Shown here one piece after another: positions 2,803-62,491 of a DNA stretch of 64,000 bases (its first letter is position 1; the number at the start of each line of letters is the position of its first letter). Source of the stretch: Mobula hypostoma (taxonomy: Eukaryota); NCBI RefSeq assembly GCF_963921235.1, contig NC_086097.1:76138001-76202000 (forward strand), in the 5' to 3' direction. The translations under genes and the position numbers were made by a program. The notes beneath the pieces are model-generated. The model was not told the DNA's origin and did not search any database. It saw nothing but the letters and a program-made list of their open reading frames with translations.

Positions 2803-3765
2803 AATAGAAACATAGAAAACCTACTGCACAATACAAGCCCTTTGGCCCACAAAACTGTGCCAAACATGTCCCTACCTTAGAAGTACCTAGGCTTTACCCA
2901 CAGCCCTCTATTTTTCTAAGCTCCATGTAGCCATCCAGGAGTCTCTTAAAAGACCCTATCATTTCCGCCTCTGCCGGCAGCCCATTCCACGCACTCAGCA
3001 CTCTCCGCTTGTAAAAAAAAAACTTTACACCTGACATCTCTTCTGTACCTACTTCCAAGCACCTTAAAACTATGCTCTCTCGTGCTAGCTATTCCTACCC
3101 TGGGGAAAAGCCTCTGACTATCCACACGATCGATGCCTCTCATTATTTAGTACACTTCTATCAGGTCACCTCTTATCTGTCATTCCAAGGAGAAAAGGCT
3201 GAGTTCACTCCACCTATTCTCATAAGGCATGCTCCCCAATCCAGGCAACATCCTTGTAAAATCTCCTCTGCACCCTTTCTATGGTTTCCACATCCTTCCT
3301 GTAGTGAGGTGCCCAGAATTGAGCACAGTAGTCCAAGTGGGGTCTGACCAAGGGCCTATATAGCGGCAACATTACCACTTGGCTCAGAACTCAATCCCAC
3401 GATTGATGAAGGCCAATGCACCATATGCTTTCTTAACCACAGAGTCAAGCTGCATAGCAGCTTTGAGTGTCCTATGGACTCGGACCCCAAGATCTCTCTG
3501 ATCCTCCACACTGCCAAGAGTCTTACCATTAATGCTATATTCTGCCATCAAATTTGACCTACCAAAATGAACCATCTCACAGTTATCTGGGTTGAACTCC
3601 CCATCTGCCACTTCTCAGCCCAGTTTTGCATCCTATCAATGTCTTGTCGTAACCTCTGACAGCCATCCACACTATCCACAACACCCCCAGCCTTTGTGTT
3701 ATCAGCAAATTTACTAACACATCCCTCCACTTCCTCCTCCAGGTCATTTATAAAACTCTCAAAGA
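2803..3765 (-). mobile_element. 5'-truncated CR1 LINE (RT C-terminus and 3' tail), frameshifted
   Basis: Minus-strand fragments SKFADNTK, MVHFGRSN and RGIDRVDSQRLFP; atagaaacatagaaa tail. Confidence 0.92.
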
Positions 3766-3914
3766 GTAGAGAAGAGTGTTTAGTTTTTCAGAAATTCCTG
3801 TGTTGTCAAAGTTTTATAAAGATATTAATTCTAATGTTTAATATACTTAAACAAAATCCTGAAAAATGACCCAGTAGATTTTCTCTTAGCCTGTCATACA
3901 TGTATTTAAGATGT

Positions 3915-15659: not shown

Positions 15660-17492
15660 TACTTCTACCTCCTGGTCTCTGTTCTACAACACCTCCCAGG
15701 GCTTTGCCAAACTTTGTAAATTCCCTTCCCAAAACATATCATTTTGCAATCGTCCAAGTCAAATTCCATCTGCCATTCCTTGGCCCATTTTCCCAGTTGA
15801 TCTTGATTCTGTTTTAATCTTGCACAACGTTCTTCACTGTCCACCTCACCAATAATTTTGGTGTAATCTGCAAACCTAGATTTTCATCAAATTGCAAAGT
15901 ATCTGTCAAGTCAGTTTGGACCCTTGAAATTATATCAAATACAATTATTTAAATCAATATTTATACATGAAGCAGTGATTCTCTAAATAATTCTAACCCA
16001 TATGCAACAGAGCTTATTTTAAAATCCCTTCATTAATTATATTGGTATTGTACATAGAGCATAATAATACACATTTCTGTTTTCTTTTTAGGTATGTTCT
16101 CCAGTGACACCGGCCACAAACATATTTAAGTGGAGCACTTACTTTTATGGGCATAACATACTATTTACTTTCAAAGACAGGAGTGTTACACAAGGATTGT
16201 CTGATGATATGAACTGTAAATTGCAGATACTGAAATTGGTCAAGGTTCTACCCATTGTAAAACAGACAAATTACTCCTTGAATTTAGCTACATTGATTCT
16301 GTTGCTAAATCCAAGGGGAATGGTTTTAAGGCATTCCTTTGCAGGATTTTTTTTTACAATCCCAAAAGGAATTTTAATCTCCTCTGATTATTCATTCTAT
16401 TCTAAAAGAATCTTTTCTAACTTTGAGGGGCAAATTAAGGAAGGTAGAAAATTGCCAATTTTGGGGCAGACCCAAACAGGAAAAATTAAAATGGTCTTAG
16501 AAAATAATGTGTGTAGAGACCAACTCAAAGGTCAACAAAATTCAAATGTATCAACAAGCCTGATTCAAAATCATGTGGAAAAATAACTGGCAAAAGTACA
16601 TTGAAAATGTTGGATGAGTAAGTAGTCCAATTTAAAAATACTATTTTTGTATACATAATTAAACCATAAAACACAAACTGATATGATTCCTCTGTCCCTG
16701 AGGCTGTTTCATACTTCACAGCATGCTGATTATTTTATAGTTACGAAAAAAACATTTTCCATTGGTTACAAATGTATACCACAGCAAGAAGAAACAGGAA
16801 ATGTTACACCTATGTTGCAAATCTGGGGACCTTTTTAGTAAATCACTTACAAACACAGTCAACAGCATTTGATTTGAACTGAAAGAATAAGGAACATACT
16901 AAATTGATACATGGATATACAAACTGACCAGTGTCAGAAAAGATAAAACAAAATTTTAATGATTATTGTGAATTACATTTTGGATAGTCAATTAGGGGTA
17001 GAACATATACAATAAATAGTAGGGTACTAAGAAATATTGATGAACAGTAGGGACCAAGGGCCAAGGTCGACATTTGTCTGATAATGTGGCCATGTTTGTG
17101 GATGATACAAAGATGGGTAGATGGGGCAGGGAGACTGCAGAACGACTTAAGATTAAGGGAATGGGCAAAGAATTAGCAGATGGAATACAGTGTAGGAAGG
17201 TGTATGGTTATGTACTGTAGTAGAAGGACTATAGGTGTAGACTATGTACTAAACAAGAAGCAAATTCAGAAATCAGAGGTGAAAAAGAGACTCGTGAGTC
17301 CTTGTGCAGGATTCCCTAAAGGTTAACTTACAGACTGAGTGAGTGGTAAGGAAGGCAAGTGTGAAGTTAACATTCATTTTGAGAGGACAGGAATATAGAA
17401 ACATAGAAACATAGAAAATAGGTGCAGGAGTAGGCCATTCGGCCCTTCGAGCCTGCACCGCCATTTATTATGATCATGGCTGATCATCCAAC

Positions 17493-20492
17493 TCAGAACC
17501 CAGCCTTCCCTCCATACCCCCTGACCCCTGTAGCCACAAGGGCCATATCTAACTTCCTTTTAAACATAGCTAATGAACTGGCCTCAACAGTTTGCTGTGG
17601 CAGAGAATTCCACAGATTCACCACTCTCTGTGTGAAGAAGTTTTTCCTAACCTCGGTCCTAAAAGGCTTCCCCTCTATCCTCAAACTGTGACCCCTCGTT
17701 CTAGACCTCCCCAACATCGGGAACAATCTTCCTGCATCTAGCCTGTCCAATCCCTTTAGGATCTTATACGTTTCAATCAGATCCCCCCTCAATCTTCTAA
17801 ATTCCAACGAGTACAAGCCCAGTTCATCCAGTCTTTCTTCATATGAAAGACCTGCCATCCCAGGAATCAATCTGGTGAACCTTCTTTGTACTCCCTCTAT
17901 GGCAAAGATGTCTTTCCTCAGATTAGGGGACCAAAACTGCACACAATACTCCAGGTGTGGTCTCACCAAGGCCTTGTACAACTGCAGTAGTACCTCCCTG
18001 CTCCTGTACTCGAATCCTCTCGCTATAAATGCCAGCATACCGTTCGCCTTTTTCACCGCCTGCTGTACCTGCATGCCCACTTTCAATGACTGGTGTATAA
18101 TGACACCCAGGTCTCGTTGCACCTCCCCTTTTCCTAATCGGCCACCATTCAGATAATAATCTGTTTTCCTATTTTTGCCACCAAAGTGGATAACTTCACA
18201 TTTATCCACATTAAATTGCATCTGCCATGAGTTTGCCCACTCACCCAACCTATCCAAGTCACCCTGCATCCTCTTAGCATCCTCCTCACTGCTAACACTG
18301 CCACCCAGCTTCGTGTCATCCGCAAACTTGGAGATGCTGCATTTAATTCCCTCATCCAAGTCATTAATATATATTGTAAACAACTGGGGTCCCAGCACTG
18401 AGCCTTGCGGTACCCCACTAGTCACCGCCTGCCATTCTGAAAAGGTCCCGTTTATTCCCACTCTTTGCTTCCTGTCTGCTAACCAATTCTCCACCCACAC
18501 CAATACCTTACCCCCAATACCGTGTGCTTTAAGTTTGCACACTAATCTCCTATGTGGGACCTTGTCAAAAGCCTTTTGAAAATCCAAATATACCACATCC
18601 ACTGGTTCTCCCCTATCCACTCTACTAGTTACATCCTCAAAAAATTCTATGAGATTCGTCAGACATGATTTTCCTTTCACAAATCCATGCTGACTTTGTC
18701 CGATCATTTCACCGCTTTCCAAATGTGCTGTTATCACATCCTTGATAACTGACTCCAGCAGTTTCCCCACCACCGACGTTAGGCTAACCGGCCTATAATT
18801 CCCCGGTTTCTCTCTCCCTCCTTTTTTAAAAAGTGGGGTTACATTAGCCACCCTCCAATCCTCAGGAACTAGTCCAGAATCTAACGAGTTTTGAAAAATT
18901 ATCACTAATGCATCCACTATTTCTTGGGCCACTTCCTTAAGCACTCTGGGATGCAGACCATCTGGCCCTGGGGATTTATCTGCCTTCAATCCCTTCAATT
19001 TACCTAACACCACTTCCCTACTAACATGTATTTCGCTCAGTTCCTCCATCTCACTGGACCCTCTGTCCCTTACTATTTCTGGAAGATTATTTATGTCCTC
19101 CTTAGTGAAGACAGAACCAAAGTAATTATTCAATTGGTCTGCCATGTCCTTGCTCCCCATAATCAATTCACCTGTTTCTGTTTGCAGGGGACCTACATTT
19201 GTCTTTATCAGTCTTTTCCTTTTTACATATCTATAAAAGCTTTTACAGTCCGTTTTTATGTTCTCTGCCAGTTTTCTCTCATAATCTTTTTTCCCCTTCC
19301 TAATTAAGCCCTTTGTCCTCCTCTGCTGAACTCTGAATTTCTCCCAGTCCTCAGGTGAGCCACTTTCTCTGGCTAATTTGTATGCTACTTCTTTGGAATT
19401 GATACTATCCCTAATTTCTCTTGTCAGCCACGGGTGCACTACCTTCCTTGATTTATTCTTTTGCCAAACTGGGATGAACAATTGTTGTAGTTCATCCATG
19501 CAACCTTTAAATGCCTGCCATTGCATATCCACCGTCAATCCTTGAAGTGTCATTTGCCAGTCTATCTTAGCTAATTCATGTCTCATACCTTCAAAGTTAC
19601 CCCTCTTTAAGTTCAGAACCTTTGTTTCTGAATTAACTACGTCACTCTCCATGTTAATGAAGAATTCCACCATATTATGGTCACTCTTACCCAAGGGGCC
19701 TCTCACGACAAGATCGCTAATTAACCCTTCCTCATTGCTCAAAACCCAGTCCAGAATAGCCTGCTCTCTAGTCGGTTCCTCGACATGTTGGTTCAAAAAA
19801 CCATCCCGCATACATTCCAAGAAATCCTCTTCCTCAGCACCTTTACCAATTTGGTTCACCCAGTCTACATGTAGATTGAAGTCACCCATTATAACTGCTG
19901 TTCCTTTATTGCACACATTTCTAATTTCCTGTTTAATACCATCTCCGACCTCACTACTACTGTTAGGTGGCCTGTACACAACTCCCAGCAGCGTCTTCTG
20001 CCCCTTAGTGTTACGCAGCTCTACCCATATCGATTCCACATCTTCCCGGCTTATGTCCTTCCTTTCTATTGCGTTAATCTCTTTTTTAACCAGCAACGCC
20101 ACCCCACCTCCCCTTCCTTCGTGTCTATCCCTCCTGAATATTGAATATCCCTGAACGTTGAGCTCCCATCCCTGGTCACCCTGGAGCCATGTCTCTGTGA
20201 TCCCAACTATATCATAATCATTAATAACAATCTGCACTTTCAATTCATCCACCTTATTACGAATGCTCCTTGCATTGACACATAAAGCCTTCAGGCACTC
20301 TTTTACAACTCTCTTAGCCCTTTTTAATGCTTGCCCTGGATTTGTCGGCCTGCCACTTTTACTTTTCCCCTTTGTACTTTTTGCTTCTACGCTCACTTTA
20401 CACCCCTCTGTCTCTCTGCACTGGTTCCCATCCCTCTGTTGTGAACTAACCTCCTCACACCTAGCCGCTTTAATTTGATTCCCACCCCCCAA
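17493..20492 (-). CDS. CR1 ORF2: APE-type endonuclease and reverse transcriptase, uninterrupted, no AUG start
   Basis: Endonuclease motifs NARSI, GITETW, MGDFN and SDHN; RT motifs YRPVSLTS, LDFQKAFD, GVPQGSVLGP and FADD. The first codon shown is TTG. Confidence 0.96.
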   Translation of the reverse strand: MGGGNQIKAARCEEVSSQQRDGNQCRETEGCKVSVEAKSTKGKSKSGRPTNPGQALKRAKRVVKECLKALCVNARSIRNKVDELKVQIVINDYDIVGITETWLQGDQGWELNVQGYSIFRRDRHEGRGGGVALLVKKEINAIERKDISREDVESIWVELRNTKGQKTLLGVVYRPPNSSSEVGDGIKQEIRNVCNKGTAVIMGDFNLHVDWVNQIGKGAEEEDFLECMRDGFLNQHVEEPTREQAILDWVLSNEEGLISDLVVRGPLGKSDHNMVEFFINMESDVVNSETKVLNLKRGNFEGMRHELAKIDWQMTLQGLTVDMQWQAFKGCMDELQQLFIPVWQKNKSRKVVHPWLTREIRDSINSKEVAYKLARESGSPEDWEKFRVQQRRTKGLIRKGKKDYERKLAENIKTDCKSFYRYVKRKRLIKTNVGPLQTETGELIMGSKDMADQLNNYFGSVFTKEDINNLPEIVRDRGSSEMEELSEIHVSREVVLGKLKGLKADKSPGPDGLHPRVLKEVAQEIVDALVIIFQNSLDSGLVPEDWRVANVTPLFKKGGREKPGNYRPVSLTSVVGKLLESVIKDVITAHLESGEMIGQSQHGFVKGKSCLTNLIEFFEDVTSRVDRGEPVDVVYLDFQKAFDKVPHRRLVCKLKAHGIGGKVLVWVENWLADRKQRVGINGTFSEWQAVTSGVPQGSVLGPQLFTIYINDLDEGIKCSISKFADDTKLGGSVSSEEDAKRMQGDLDRLGEWANSWQMQFNVDKCEVIHFGGKNRKTDYYLNGGRLGKGEVQRDLGVIIHQSLKVGMQVQQAVKKANGMLAFIARGFEYRSREVLLQLYKALVRPHLEYCVQFWSPNLRKDIFAIEGVQRRFTRLIPGMAGLSYEERLDELGLYSLEFRRLRGDLIETYKILKGLDRLDAGRLFPMLGRSRTRGHSLRIEGKPFRTEVRKNFFTQRVVNLWNSLPQQTVEASSLAMFKRKLDMALVATGVRGYGGKAGF

Positions 20493-20497
20493 CCATT

Positions 20498-20690
20498 CTA
20501 GTTTAAAGTCACCTCAGTAGCCCCCGCTAATCTCCCTGCCAGGATATTGGTCCCCCGAGGATTTAAGTGTAACCCGTCCTTTTTGTACAGGTCACACCTG
20601 CGCCAAAAGAGGTCCCAATGATCCAAAAACTTGAATCCCTGCCCCCTGCTCCAATCCCTCAGCCACGCATTTATCCTCCACCTCATCGCA
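20498..20690 (-). CDS. CR1 ORF1 C-terminal fragment (SGNH-esterase-like domain)
   Basis: RINAWLRDWSRGQGFKFLDHWDLFW...DGLHLNPRGTNILAG...TLN*, with the DxxH block typical of CR1 ORF1 esterases. Confidence 0.85.
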
Positions 20691-21071
20691 AGAAAAGCAA
20701 GAATGTAATGCTGACCCTTTATGAGGCATGAGTCAGACGGCATGTGGAGAATTGTGAGCAGTTTTGGGCCCTTTATCTTAGAAGAAATGTGCTGGCATTG
20801 GTGAAGTTTCAGAGGAGGTTCACAAGAATGATCCAGGGAATGACAGGGTTAATGTATGAGGAGCATTTGATGGCTCTAGGCCCATCCTTGCTGGTGTTTA
20901 GAAGAACTGGGGAGACAGTGGGGGGGGGGGGGCGCTTATTGAAACCTATTGAATATTGAAAAGTCTAGATAGAGTGGCTGTGACAAGGGTGTTTCCTATA
21001 GCGGGGGAGTCTAGAACCAGAGGGCACAGCCTCAGAATAGAAGGATGCTTCTTTAGGACAGAAGTGAAGAG

Positions 21072-21149
21072 CAGGGGCTCCCAAACATTTTATACTGTGA
21101 ACCAGACTATTAAGCAAAGGGTCCATGGAACCCAGGTATGGAAGCCCTA
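21072..21149. mobile_element. Short hAT-like MITE
   Basis: Imperfect TIRs caggggctcccaaac / ggtatggaagcccta; interrupts CR1 sequence. Confidence 0.55.
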
Positions 21150-21206
21150 CTTTGGAGGCTGGCAAATCTGTGGAATTTATTTCTGCACAACATGGTGGAA
21201 GCTAAG

Positions 21207-21703
21207 TCATTTAGTCATAGTCATACTTATATTGATCCCGGGAGAAATTGGTTTTCCTTACAGTTGCACCATAAATAATTAAATAGTAATAAAACCATAA
21301 ATAGTTAAATAGTAGTATGTAAATTATGCCAGGAAATAAATCCAGGACCAGCCTATTGGCTCAGGGTGTCTGACCCCCAAGGGAGGAGTTGTAAAGTTTG
21401 ATGGCCACAGGCAGGAATGACTTCCTATGATGCTCTGTGCTGCATCTCAGTGGAATGAGTCTCTGGCTGAATGTACTCCTGTGCCCACCCAGTACATTAT
21501 GTAGTGGATGGGAGACATTGACCAAGATGGCATGCAACTTGGACAGCATCCTCTTTTCAGACACCACCGTCAGAGAGTCCTGTTCCATCCCTACAACATC
21601 ACCGGCCTTACGAAAGAGTTTGTTGATTCTGTTGGTATCTGCTACCCTCAGCCTGCTGCCCCAGCACACAACAGCAAACATGATCGCACTGGCCACCACA
21701 GGC
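21207..21703 (-). mobile_element. Rex1/Babar LINE 3' end
   Basis: VASAIMFAVVCWG...SHPLH...RKSFLPVAIKLYN; tagtca repeats at the tail. Confidence 0.88.
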
Positions 21704-21872: not shown

Positions 21873-22332
21873 CACTCACTCAGAGGTTCCTCCTGTACCT
21901 AATAAAGTGGCCACTGAGTGTATGTTCATGGGTATCAATGTTCGAGGTGTGTGTTCAGAGATGTTCTCCTGCACACCACTGTTGTAACATGTGGTTGCTT
22001 GAATTACTGGCACCTTCCTGTCAGTTTGAACCAGTCTGGGCATTCTCCTCTAACCTCTCTCATTAACAAGGAGTTTTCACCCACACAGCTCTCACTCACT
22101 GGATGTTTTTTTTTTGCACCATTCTCTGTAAGCTCCAGAGAGAAATGTGTATGAAAATCCCAGGACGTCAGCAGTTTCTGAGATACTTAAACCACCCTGT
22201 TTGGCACCCACAATCAATCCACGGTCAAAGTCACTTACATCACATTTCTTCCCCATTCTGATGTTTGCTCTGAACAACAACTGAACCTCTTGACCATGTC
22301 TGCATGCTTTTATGAATTGAGTTCTGGCCACA
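21873..22332 (-). mobile_element. Decayed Tc1-like transposon (transposase N-terminus and TIR-like sequence)
   Basis: MGKKCDVSDFDRGLIVGAKQGGLSISETADVLGFS is a Tc1 paired-like HTH start; TIR-like gtacctaataaagtggccactgagtgta lies at about 21895-21922. Confidence 0.85.
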
Positions 22333-23137: not shown

Positions 23138-23540
23138 ACATAGAAACATGGAACACCTACAGCACAATACAGGCCCTTCGGCCCACAAAGCTGTGCCAAA
23201 CATGTCCCTACACTAGACCTACCTGGGCTTTACCCATAGCCCTCTATTTTTCTAAGCTCCGTGTAGCCATCCAGGAGTCTCTTAAAAGACCTTATCGTTT
23301 CCGCCTCCACCATCGTCGCCGGCAGCCTATTCCACACACTCACCACTCTCTGTGTAAAAAACTTACCCCTGACATCTCCTCTGTATCTACATCCAAGCAC
23401 CTTAAACCTATGCCCTCTCGTGCTAGCCATTTTAGCCCTGGGGAAAAGCCTCTGACTATCCACACGATCAATGCCTATCATTATCTTGAACACATCTATC
23501 AGGTCACCTCTTACCCTCTGCCGCTCCAAGGAGAAAAGGT
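23138..23540 (-). mobile_element. CR1 3' end, same subfamily as the 2803 copy
   Basis: RVRGDLIDVFKIMIGIDRVDSQRLFP...FFTQRVVSVWNRLP. Confidence 0.92.
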
Positions 23541-24419
23541 TATGTTTACTAAGTTACTGAATGTTGTGATCTATACCTTGTAGCTAATTGAGAGAGAAGC
23601 ATCTATTTATTCTGCTGTAGTCCACAGGCATTGATTCGGGCAGTGTACAATTGTATGTTTTGTTTCCAATAGGACATACTCTGCAGTACTTGCGCATGGA
23701 GATACATTACAAAATAAAATGTGAAAATGTACAGTAATTAATTTTTTATAATCTGGATTGGGTGTAGAAAAATAGTTGGGCCCCCTTCGAAGAATCGTCC
23801 CTGGTATAAAAGGATGACTTGTAACGTAACAGTGTGGTGTTCTCAGTGAACGAAGAACATGGAACAGTATGGCACAATATAGGCCTTTCAGCCCATGATG
23901 TTGTATTGATCCGCATTAAGAGAACAAGTGATCACAGTTAATAAATTCTGCTGTATACTCACTTGGATAATTTTGGAGTTAGAGGATGGAGGGGGTTGAT
24001 TTTAAGCATGCTCTGTGAGGTCACACAATCTCCTGTGTCTGACCAACGTGGTGTGCACCATCTTTGACTTATTGATGGAGAGGATTGCAATGAGGATAAC
24101 CAACACAATGTGCATGAATACCCAAGTGTTGTCAAAATTGTTTGCAATCTGAACATCTAATGTCCATCACGCAATCATCCAAGAATGGAGAAGAACTTGT
24201 CAAGGTCAGAGTGGGTGCTACTGCTCACCAGAGAGTTTACTTTGAGTTCAACCCTCTGTCCAACATCTGCTGCTGTCTCAATGCTGGTCTGGCCTGATGA
24301 GAAGCTGAAAAAGCCACACAACAGTTCAAAAATAACAGAACAGATGAAATTCCACACGATAGATTAAAATGTGGCAAATTATTATTTTCATGATCTCATT
24401 TCCCTCAGCCTCGGACAGA

Positions 24420-42078: not shown

Positions 42079-43429
42079 GAAATACATTTGTAAACTGGCT
42101 GTTGTAAATATATACTGTTACAAGTTTAAGAGCTTTGATTCATGATTGTAGCTAACCCAAGGAGTAAAATGTGTCTTGAGTCTATGCTTTCGGAGTAACA
42201 TTATTAGAATGTGTAATAATGAAAGGCAACGTACTGTATCTGTAATGAGCATTTAGTTGCCAAACAAGCAATCAGTAGAAAAATGAGTGCCATTTTGAAA
42301 GTGTATGTTCATTATAATTTTATTTGGGAATTGATTGAAAAATCTTGGTTACATGCCAATATCCCATTGTTCTATGGATACACATGTAAATATGAAAAAA
42401 ACATGTATAATGTGTCTAAATCTGTCAGCAGCAAGGTGTGATGTCAGCAAAGTGTAATGTTCAATATGTCCTATTAATATATTATTTTAGCGTACTTGTC
42501 AAAATTGGCTGGGGGCTGATCAGTAATCCTGTTTTTTATAACTACTGTTCACGCAGAGAGAGCAGGATTTTCCCTTTGCCAACAGCATTTTAAGAAATAT
42601 TTTTTAAGTAGGCTATTTATGAGCAGTCCAAAGTTGCAGCGAAGTATGCTTCAGAAAGGAAACGTGGAGTGCATTTTTGTAATCACAGCTTCATCATAAT
42701 GGCAATTATTATTCCATTTACTGATCTTGGTTTAATAGACCATAATACAGTTGATTAGTAAACATCTCTTCAGTTTTGATCTTTCATGATGGATTATTGA
42801 CAGAAAGAGATTTTAAGTTACACTTTATTTAACATCACTCAGGAATATACCATCTATAATTTTACAATTATGCCCCTTATTCTAGACAAATGGAAATGGT
42901 TTATCCTTATCTGCCCTTTAATCCCTTAATCATCTTAAACATTTCACTTAGCTCACTCTCTAATCTCCCGTGTTCAAGAGAACACAGACTCAGTCTATGC
43001 AACCTGTACTCAACATTAAAACCACTTAACACTGATAACCTTCTGGTGAAGTCTGTGGATTATGCTTCCAGTTCACTAGTCGAATACAATTGTATCCAAT
43101 GAACCTCTGACAGTAATTTTTATGTTCAGAGAATAATTAATGCAAAGGTAATCACAATTTTTTGCACTTGATAACAATAAAAAAGTGTATCTTCAGTTTT
43201 GATTATATTTTTATGGTGTATTGATAGCAAAACCAAAAGTCAATCAATAACATCATTTGCTTTTATGGACTGACATTTATCCATGTTTAAAAATAAAAGT
43301 CAGGAAAATTTCCTATCAGGACTCATACCCACAAAAAGACTTATTGATCAGTAAAATGGTAATAGGCCCACGCTATAGAGAGTTCATATAAGAAACTGGT
43401 CATGTTACTTATGTACATGACAATAAGCT

Positions 43430-45386: not shown

Positions 45387-46579
45387 AAATTCCAATACTT
45401 GTTACTTTCATTCCTATTTCCTGTATTTTTTGGCAGTTCAGTAACTCATGTGTGAATTTCAGCGTTACTTCCCTGAGTTTATTCTAGGATACAGACAATT
45501 ATGCCAAACAGGAAAGATACTAGCATGGACAGAAGACTGGCTGACTGGCAGGAGGCAAAGTGTCAGAATAAAAGGGATCTATTCTGGTTGGCTGCCAGTG
45601 ACTAGTGGTGTTCAGCAGGGATTGTTATTGGGATTGCTTCTTTTCACATTATATATCAATGATTTGAATGATGGAATTGATGGCTTTGTGGTCAAGTTTT
45701 CAGACTTCACAAAGGTAGTTGGAGGGGCACATAGTGTTGATAAAGCAGGGAGTCTGCAGAATGACTTGGATAGATTGGGAGAATGGGCAAAGAAACGACC
45801 GGTGGGATATAGTGTAAGAAAGTGTACAGTCATGCACTGTAGAAGGAATAAAAGCATAGACTATTTTCTAAGATTCAAAAATCAGAGGTGCAAAGGGTCT
45901 TGGGAGTTCTTGTGCAGAATTTCCTAAAGGTTAATTTGCAGTTTGAGTTGGTGGTAGGGAAGGAAAATGCAAAGTTAGCATTCCTTTCGAGAAGACTAGA
46001 CTATAAGAGCAAGGAAGTGATGATGAGGCTTTATAAGACTCCACTTGGAGTATTGTGAACAGTTTTGGGCTCCTTATCTAAGAAAGATTTGAAACTTATT
46101 GAATGTTCAAAGGCCTTTCTAGAGTGGATGTGGAGAGGAAATTTCCTATAGTGGGGGAATCCAGGACCAAAGAGCACAGCCTCAGAATAGAGGGCCATCC
46201 ATTTAGAACAGAAAAGGAATTTCAGAGAGTTGTGAATCTGTGGAATTCATCGCCATGGATGGCTGTGCAGGCCAAGACATTGGGTATATTTAAAGGTGAG
46301 GTTGATAAGATCTTGGTTCGTCAAGGCATCAAAAGCTAGGGGTGAAGGCAGGAGAATGAGGATGAGAAGGATAATAAATTAGGTTAGATGAGCGAGTGAA
46401 TATTTGACAGAAAGAGTGCAATGTGGGGAAAATGAAGTGGTTGATTTTGGAGAGAAAAACTGCAAAAAGGTGCAGGACAAAGGGATTTGGGGAAACCTGT
46501 ACGTGAAACGTAGAAAGCGAGCAAAGAACTACGCATGTAAGCAAAGGATAATAGAATGTTGGTTATAATAAAATATAAT

Positions 46580-60520: not shown

Positions 60521-61070
60521 TGTGCTGATGGAGATTGTGGAGGAGATGCTGCCAATCTGCACTGACTGGAGTCTGCAGATGAGGAAATTGAGGATCCAAT
60601 TGCACAGGGATGTACTGAGGCCAAGATCTTAAAGCTCACTGATTAGTTTTGAGGGGATGATAGTGTTGAATGCTGAGCTGTAGTCGATAAAGTGCATCCT
60701 GACGTATAGTGCATCCAGATGTTCCAGGGTTGAGTGAAGAATTAGTGAGATGGCACCTGCTGTGGACCTGTTGCTCCAGTAGGCAAATTGGAGCAGATGC
60801 AAGTCACTTCTTAGGCAGCAGTTAATAGGTTTCATCACCAAACTCTCAAAACACTTCATCACTGTGGATGCAAGTGCTACTGGACAATAGTCATTGAGGC
60901 ATGTTACCATGCTTTTCTTAGGCACTGGTATAATTGAAGCCTGCTTGAAACAGATAAGTACCTCAGACTGCTGAAGTGAGAGGTTAAAGACTTCAGTGAA
61001 CACTCCAGCCAGTTGATCAGCACAGATCTTTAGTACTCAGCCAGGTACTAGATCTGGGCCAGATGCTTTT
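60520..61070 (-). mobile_element. Rex1/Babar LINE RT fragment
   Basis: IIPVPKK...[19 protein letters not shown]...LQFAY...[13 protein letters not shown]. Confidence 0.9.
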
Positions 61071-62015: not shown

Positions 62016-62491
62016 TGATTCCTGGGATGGCAGGTCTTTCATATGAAGAAAGACTGGATGAACTGGGCTTGTACTCGTTGGAATTTAGAAGATTGAGGGG
62101 GGATCTGATTGAAACGTATAAGATCCTAAAGGGATTGGACAGGCTAGATGCAGGAAGATTGTTCCCGATGTTGGGGAGGTCTAGAACGAGGGGTCACAGT
62201 TTGAGGATAGAGGGGAAGCCTTTTAGGACCGAGGTTAGGAAAAACTTCTTCACACAGAGAGTGGTGAATCTGTGGAATTCTCTGCCACAGCAAACTGTTG
62301 AGGCCAGTTCATTAGCTATGTTTAAAAGGAAGTTAGATATGGCCCTTGTGGCTACAGGGGTCAGGGGGTATGGAGGGAAGGCTGGGTTCTGAGTTGGATG
62401 ATCAGCCATGATCATAATAAATGGTGGTGCAGGCTCGAAGGGCCGAATGGCCTACTCCTGCACCTATTTTCTATGTTTCTATGTTTCTATG
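62016..62491 (+). mobile_element. Young CR1 3' fragment nearly identical to the 17395-20690 element
   Basis: Identical translation and tail; TSD-like ATGAACA at 61997-62003 and 62489-62495. Confidence 0.96.

Follow-up and report, generated by a model that had tools for sequence, protein, structure and literature searches.

A conserved in-register slippery heptamer at the ORF1/ORF2 junction of esterase-type CR1 elements suggests programmed -1 frameshifting

Introduction

The way in which long interspersed nuclear elements (LINEs) synthesize a second protein has long been an open question, studied mainly in L1, whose open reading frames (ORFs) do not overlap. According to passages of two papers (PMC5009743, PMC1965478), mammalian L1 has a bicistronic RNA with a low ORF2 output for which an AUG is not strictly needed. 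Here, we examine a CR1-clade LINE copy on the minus strand of a 64,000-nucleotide (nt) stretch of Mobula hypostoma (RefSeq assembly GCF_963921235.1, contig NC_086097.1, positions 76,138,001 to 76,202,000; hereafter the window). Whereas the ORFs of L1 yield separate proteins, the two frames of this CR1 overlap on a conserved heptamer, and a sequence-only reading of the window had proposed that ORF2 is expressed there by programmed -1 ribosomal frameshifting on a U_UUA_AAC site, giving a Gag-Pol-like ORF1-ORF2 fusion.

A precedent for frameshifting in a LINE is given by Dictyostelium TRE5-A and TRE3-A, non-long terminal repeat elements of the apurinic/apyrimidinic endonuclease (APE) type, for which a -1 frameshift is needed for ORF2 according to the legend of a review (PMC5911963). 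Compared from that legend, they differ from CR1 in belonging to another clade and in having an unrelated ORF1. The -1 signals of coronaviruses and retroviruses share with CR1 the same heptamer, as given in part of a further review (PMC5009743), and the placing of a structural gene upstream and the polymerase downstream; however, CR1 shows a short G-run at +11 (counted from the heptamer), and no stem-loop or pseudoknot was found at 5 to 9 nt. The same part of that review states that folded stimulators sit 5 to 9 nt past the shift site and that protein-stimulated sites have spacers of 11 to 14 nt. [quoted passage not shown] The PRRSV motif is C-rich, serves a -2/-1 shift and depends on a viral cofactor, whereas the CR1 run is G-rich and a candidate stimulator.

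Among CR1 elements, the closest described group comprises vertebrate LINEs whose ORF1 is of type IVB and combines a zinc finger/leucine zipper with an esterase (CR1 subgroup 7 in part of Metcalfe and Casane, PMC4120745). We found no report of a CR1 slippery site in the open literature, and an earlier mention in the 1997 chicken and turtle CR1 papers, in Kapitonov and Jurka 2003 or in Repbase is quite possible. No such site is mentioned in passages of PMC5009743, PMC4255032, PMC5006619, PMC4120745, PMC3905857 and PMC8665684, and passages of PMC4120745 and PMC3905857 contain no instance of the word "frameshift" and do not deal with the translation of ORF2.

Results

The window copy has a slippery heptamer directly before the ORF1 stop

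ORF1 of the window copy ends ACT TTA AAC TAG, which places the heptamer T TTA AAC in X_XXY_YYZ register in the zero frame, next to the stop codon. ORF2 lies in the -1 frame and opens behind a TGA, and the overlap of the two frames (20513 to 20498, 16 nt including the stop) contains the heptamer. All of this had been described in the sequence-only reading, whose coordinates hold (Table 1), as does its statement that the ATG near the stop is out of frame and yields only the 8 codons MVGGWESN. It had further placed the first in-frame ATG of ORF2 deep inside the endonuclease; the position and the domain (by Pfam) were correct, but the codon is number 209 of the stop-to-stop frame, not 202, or number 205 when numbering begins at the first codon past the heptamer. 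No in-frame AUG precedes the endonuclease in the window copy. Likewise, the G-rich tract said to begin at +7 is present in this copy, but the part common with relatives is limited to GGGGG at +11 to +15.

The word TTTAAAC occurs 33 times on the two strands of the window and is by itself common. At the end of a frame and in register, it was found in only 1 of the 399 stop-to-stop frames of at least 50 codons in the window, and that one is the ORF1 remnant.

The heptamer is kept at synonymous positions in distant CR1 elements

A metagenome scan (53 of 64 parts) gave at least 52 loci, 24 of which matched the ORF1 C-terminus. Six of these ended short of the junction, one (L014) lacked the region and one (L045), a bacterial-type esterase, was left out; the remaining 16 were aligned with the window copy, giving 17 junctions. 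We call these loci sauropsid-type because their best matches are proteins labelled turtle and snake. The ORF2s of the set were 35 to 45% identical to that of the window and 55 to 69% identical among themselves.

Of the 17 junctions, 13 kept TTTAAAC and every one kept TTTA. Thirteen rows have no indel close by; in these, the Leu codon was invariably TTA, which has a share of 8.4% among the Leu codons of the ORF2s, and the codon before it always ended in T (26% expected) while encoding Ala, Thr or Cys; Asn was encoded by AAC in 10 of the 13. The joint chance of this synonymous pattern is about 1% per independent lineage. Upstream control columns, in comparison, varied, Leu being encoded by five different codons and Gly by three. 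The heptamer is thus conserved beyond what the amino acids need. The adjacent stop was TAG in ten junctions, TGA in two, TAA in two and missing in three.

The -1 phase was constant in the five long stop-free ORF2s (5/5). Among the ten junctions with any ORF2 match, seven had the ORF2 start in the -1 frame; L025 and L034 differed and carried stops. The position of the first in-frame AUG was not fixed, falling at codon 4, 5, 6, 19, 23, 68 or 207, or being absent.

Scans of viral contigs with six queries found no CR1 and one weak 30-aa match, plasmid searches gave no match to the element, and a GTDB scan gave two loci, neither with the junction. CR1-type ORF1 sequences were also seen under the labels Pseudomonas aeruginosa (P0028), Protopolystoma xenopodis (P0113) and Providencia alcalifaciens (L053), and these are probably vertebrate DNA within those assemblies.

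Most ORF1 homologues end in Leu-Asn

The first two protein searches gave 121 homologues. Counting tails of 20 to 40 residues after the DGxH motif, and leaving out P0001, 81 of 85 (including the window's own) ended in Asn, 80 of them with Leu before it. A profile search raised the set to 259 proteins, of which 75 lacked the motif and 16 had tails outside 22 to 45 residues. Of the 168 left, 159 were not of the DGxHP type; among their tails were ends in Leu-Asn (120), Gly-Asn (10), Lys-Asn (2) and Ser-Asn (2), as well as ends without a final Asn (23). As a control, only one of nine DGxHP-type (ZfL2-like) tails was Asn-final. Leu-Asn ends occurred at tail lengths from 22 to 39 residues and in records labelled shark, ray, coelacanth, frog, turtle, snake and monitor lizard.

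In four decayed copies whose reading passes over to the -1 frame (P0013, P0039, P0057 and P0142), FKL stands at the junction, which implies T TTA AAY there, and three of them then carry Gly-x-Gly at the position of the G-run. Codons of the form XXA exist for four residues, Leu, Gly and Lys among them. The distant esterase ORF1 proteins (32 to 39% identical) ended in Gln/Ser-Gly-Asn (P0162, P0178, P0180, P0186, P0188, P0197, P0205, P0226, P0231 and P0257) or Ser-Lys-Asn (P0198 and P0260), and these ends, known from the protein only, are compatible with G_GGA_AAC and A_AAA_AAC. Together with U_UUA_AAC, both are listed among the most shifty heptamers in part of PMC5009743. At position -3, residues without a U-ending codon were found in 3 of 113 distinct tails, versus 20% at -4 to -12; this agrees with the heptamer, but we discount it because positions -6 and -7 were equally low.

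Two further protein observations were made. Lys-Asn stands 10 to 11 residues before the protein end in P0194, P0214, P0223 and P0227. In the 1031-aa P0124, an esterase with a Leu-Asn end comes after endonuclease and reverse transcriptase (RT), opposite to the arrangement in CR1; this protein probably reflects the insertion of one element into another.

The junction within the ray-type family

Contigs from 4 of 22 sequencing runs were aligned to 20240 to 20690 at 80% likeness, with 14,758 from run X4, 14,462 from X5, 3 from X13 and 17 from X14. Run X4 bears the same sample label as the possible source of the window and is not independent of it, X5 bears another organism label, and contig depth does not equal copy number. 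Among the variants listed for X4 and X5, there was no substitution at 20468 to 20523 and no indel of 4% or more at 20486 to 20555. A 1-nt loss from the G-run, at 20485, made up 4.4% of X4 depth. The loose contig ends of diverged subfamilies had ORF1 ending in AGT TTA AA or GCT TTA AA, and one 1444-nt X13 contig, from a third organism label, spanned an unaltered junction and lacked an in-frame ATG over its aligned part. A variant at 20371 would create an ATG at ORF2 codon 48 in 9% of X5.

The linker behind the junction varies in length. At 20316, relatives have a 27-nt longer, in-frame ORF2 linker, and among CR1s it ranges from about 30 to 80 codons with the junction fixed.

A G-run at a fixed distance from the heptamer

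GGGGG at +11 to +15 was common to ray-type and sauropsid-type rows. In the junction alignment, G was found at +12 and +13 in 16 of 16 rows and at +14 in 15 of 15, and the Gly codon within the run was GGG in 15 of 15 rows versus 32% usage. The second G-run was less strictly kept (G at +19 in 14 and at +20 in 13 of 15 rows). A short motif 11 to 14 nt after the shift site, as at protein-stimulated sites, is thus present, and its distance offers a lead towards that class, which it appears to suit better than it does folded stimulators. An inverted-repeat search around the G-run found nothing conserved. The best long-range partner of the run in the window was the element's own 3' untranslated region (-20.0 kcal/mol), a pairing not shared by L007 and L012.

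The element is a CR1 with an esterase ORF1

From its domains and its tail, we assign the element as an ordinary CR1-clade member with an esterase ORF1. Pfam places Exo_endo_phos at ORF2 residues 93 to 279 and RVT_1 at residues 566 to 783. Lipase_GDSL_2 matches the ORF1 remnant at E 1e-4, below the curated cut-off; the ORF1 profile matches the ZfL2-1 esterase 4C1B at E 2e-43. The last 62 aa of the remnant are 100% identical to P0002, a 311-aa protein labelled Mobula hypostoma with a Cys-rich N-terminus, which makes a ray the likely host. An esterase ORF1 with a Cys-rich N-terminus, an ORF2 with APE and RT, a short-repeat 3' tail and 5' truncation are likenesses to type IVB CR1 as described in part of PMC4120745. 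The window copy ends in TTTCTATG repeats, and loci L007 and L012 end in GATTCTATG repeats; we take a 3' tail of short tandem 8-nt repeats in place of poly(A) to be a CR1 feature.

The 5' truncation at about 20690 leaves 63 of about 311 ORF1 codons. Since the window copy lacks the 5' end of ORF1, the frameshift claim concerns the family and not the expression of this copy. A second copy (475 bp of the 3' part, 62016 to 62490, plus strand) is 99.8% identical; for this reason, and because ORF2 is stop-free, we regard the family as young, which means that an AUG-less ORF2 was functional recently.

Table 1. Coordinates of the element, its reading frames and its junction features in the window
Feature	Position	Strand	Remark
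CR1-clade LINE copy	17395..20690	-	5'-truncated inside ORF1; 475-bp 3' part 99.8% identical to copy at 62016-62490
ORF2	17493..20513	-	-1 frame; stop-to-stop length 1006 codons; encodes a linker (about 74 codons), an APE endonuclease and a reverse transcriptase
ORF1 remnant	20498..20690	-	last 63 codons; SGNH/GDSL esterase-type; ends Thr-Leu-Asn-stop
U_UUA_AAC heptamer	20501..20507	-	in ORF1 register (ACT TTA AAC), adjoining stop
ORF1 stop TAG	20498..20500	-	
TGA	20514..20516	-	closes ORF2 frame upstream of heptamer
ATG with 8-codon mini-ORF	20470..20496	-	out of frame; one base past ORF1 stop
GGGGG run	20486..20490	-	+11 to +15 from heptamer; conserved; candidate frameshift stimulator
Second G-run	20481..20483	-	+18 to +20; less strictly conserved
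In-frame GTG	20394..20396	-	codon 40 of ORF2, with A at -3; a sister subfamily has ATG
First in-frame ATG of ORF2	19887..19889	-	codon 209; within endonuclease
3' tail	17395..17417	-	TTTCTATG repeats

The young CR1 is held as an insertion by an older CR1 in the opposite orientation (17126 to 17408 and 20693 to 21215, plus strand), whose RT-region matches continue across it (residues 799 to 840, then 837 to 907); the two ends share only TTTCT. The final TTTCT of the young tail matches the 5' flank at 20695 to 20691, as a short duplication or microhomology. Older LINE fragments with 26 to 58% identity to ORF2 lie at 3009 to 3766, 15668 to 15880, 23221 to 23553, 42919 to 43050, 45454 to 46342 and 60560 to 61069, and the stretch at about 21900 to 22300 (minus strand) resembles a decayed Tc1/mariner transposase fragment.

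Discussion

Judged from sequence, the junction of this ordinary CR1 element carries a genuine recoding-like signal that is deeply conserved, with the heptamer, the phase and the +11 G-run kept from ray-type to sauropsid-type elements. We consider it likely that full-length esterase-type CR1 elements make the ORF2 protein (ORF2p) as an ORF1-ORF2 fusion, by programmed -1 frameshifting on U_UUA_AAC. The Gag-Pol-like interpretation of the sequence-only reading is supported by the conserved heptamer and the -1 phase, from which we infer the frameshifting itself.

In the proposed mechanism, a majority of ribosomes would terminate at the adjacent stop and release free ORF1 protein (ORF1p) of about 311 aa. 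With UUA in the P site and AAC in the A site, a minority would slip back by one base, with new pairing of tRNA-Leu and tRNA-Asn, and enter ORF2, giving an esterase-linker-endonuclease-RT fusion of about 1313 aa (311 + 1002). The pause would come from slow termination at the neighbouring stop codon together with the G-run at its fixed distance; the run might act by binding a protein, by forming a weak two-tier G-quadruplex or by touching the ribosome. As an outcome, a high ratio of ORF1p to ORF2p would be fixed and ORF2p would be tethered to ORF1p assemblies, as in Gag-Pol.

Several observations weigh against this mechanism. The 17 junctions are not independent, as the 16 loci come from 6 assemblies and 10 of them from a single one, and the anchor was set by aligning across indels in 4 rows, as opposed to by codon count in 13. 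Within the ray-type family, the 56-nt gap among the variants listed gives by itself only P of about 0.03. In L004 (1420 to 1832), the heptamer has become TTTACGA and the endonuclease starts in the +1 frame, stop-free to the contig end; this is a low-coverage contig with ORF1 open for 227 codons, and decay, assembly error and a real exception are all candidate explanations. The sequence-only reading had ORF2 without an AUG upstream of the endonuclease, which stands for the window copy and most of the depth under its own species label but fails elsewhere. The GTG at codon 40 is an ATG in 17% of X4 depth (variant 20396), in 95% of X5 depth there (about a quarter of X5 junction depth) and in one X14 contig, which marks a sister subfamily. 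Moreover, 7 of the 16 distant loci, including three of the four intact ones (L003, L007 and L012), have an in-frame ATG at codon 4 to 6 past the heptamer, with 5% expected from Met frequency. Finally, no classic stimulator was recognized. The 101 nt downstream gave z = +0.61 on local folding, RNAalifold gave 0 consensus pairs in 10 rows, and no conserved stem-loop or pseudoknot was found, including 5 to 9 nt past the heptamer, with folding tools that model no pseudoknots directly. A long-range pairing partner of the G-run common to relatives was not found, and a two-tier quadruplex is predicted in only 4 of 15 rows.

The AUGs raise the question of whether ORF2 is instead translated by termination-reinitiation or AUG-independent initiation, as in L1, from a nearby AUG or a near-cognate GUG, with the heptamer incidental or a relic. 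In addition to the ATGs 1 to 8 nt past the stop in 7 of 16 loci and the GTG/ATG at codon 40 of the ray-type family, of which the GTG at 20396 is the best candidate start in the window copy, the L1 case itself speaks for such a route, since ORF2 there starts independently of its AUG (passages of PMC5009743 and PMC1965478). However, the AUG positions are not conserved, a Met is met by chance in about 73% of 70-codon linkers, and two out-of-frame AUGs (20496 and 20431) stand before codon 40 in the window copy. Reinitiation also leaves unexplained the TTA, the third-position T, the AAC, the constant -1 phase and the Gly-Asn and Lys-Asn ends. We therefore regard it as an improbable sole source of ORF2p, and it may coexist with frameshifting as a second route in lineages with a stop-adjacent AUG.

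A different objection is that TTTAAAC-stop-N7-GGGGG is a nucleotide signal serving some other purpose (packaging of the RNA or binding by ORF1p, a context for termination, an internal promoter resembling TATA or a 3' splice site), with the Leu-Asn end partly a protein constraint. A G-run without the fold of a classic stimulator would suit this, as would the tail pattern, in which the Leu at -2 ends an amphipathic helix. Yet the motif is tied to the ORF1 frame and stop and shifts with the stop over tails of 22 to 39 aa; the AG required of a splice acceptor is missing in the TGA and TAA rows, and a transcript from an internal promoter would first encounter out-of-frame AUGs. With regard to protein constraint, the crystallised ZfL2-1 esterase chain stops two positions before the Leu-Asn columns, in a construct that may be trimmed. 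Altogether, we hold another job for the motif to be very improbable. Still less credible to us is that the -1 arrangement reflects a decayed single fused ORF, or RNA polymerase slippage adding a base at the A/T run. Homopolymer indels do occur in the family, as the G-run loss in X4 illustrates, but the identical stop and phase in thousands of contigs and in distant lineages largely refute decay, and runs of three T and three A are short for polymerase slippage. A search for longer homologues (8000 candidates scored) gave three proteins, none an in-frame fusion of ORF1 then ORF2, which is a weak argument in the same direction. Stop readthrough was rejected, as it keeps frame 0 and hits a stop before the ORF2 domains.

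In many non-mammalian vertebrates, CR1 is the predominant LINE. If ORF2p is made by frameshifting, RT would be tethered to a membrane-binding esterase ORF1p and the protein ratio would be set as in retroviruses; ORF2 annotations from the first AUG would be wrong, and engineered CR1 assays would need the junction retained. The junction also amounts to a 25-nt cassette with exact synonymous tests. More tentatively, and with odds that we place below even, the CR1 lineage with esterase ORF1 might in its entirety, from sharks and rays through to sauropsids and perhaps, with the Gly-Asn and Lys-Asn enders, outside the vertebrates too, make a Gag-Pol-like RT fusion by an ancient -1 frameshift stimulated by the +11, non-fold G-run, via a host G-tract-binding protein or a G-quadruplex. 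No natural G-quadruplex-stimulated frameshift was known as of a 2016 review (part of PMC5009743), which makes the CR1 G-run of interest for recoding generally. If the lineage-wide proposal is true, the main LINE of birds, reptiles and cartilaginous fish would carry in this junction a switch that the host can tune, which might also be the first natural case of frameshifting stimulated by a G-run.

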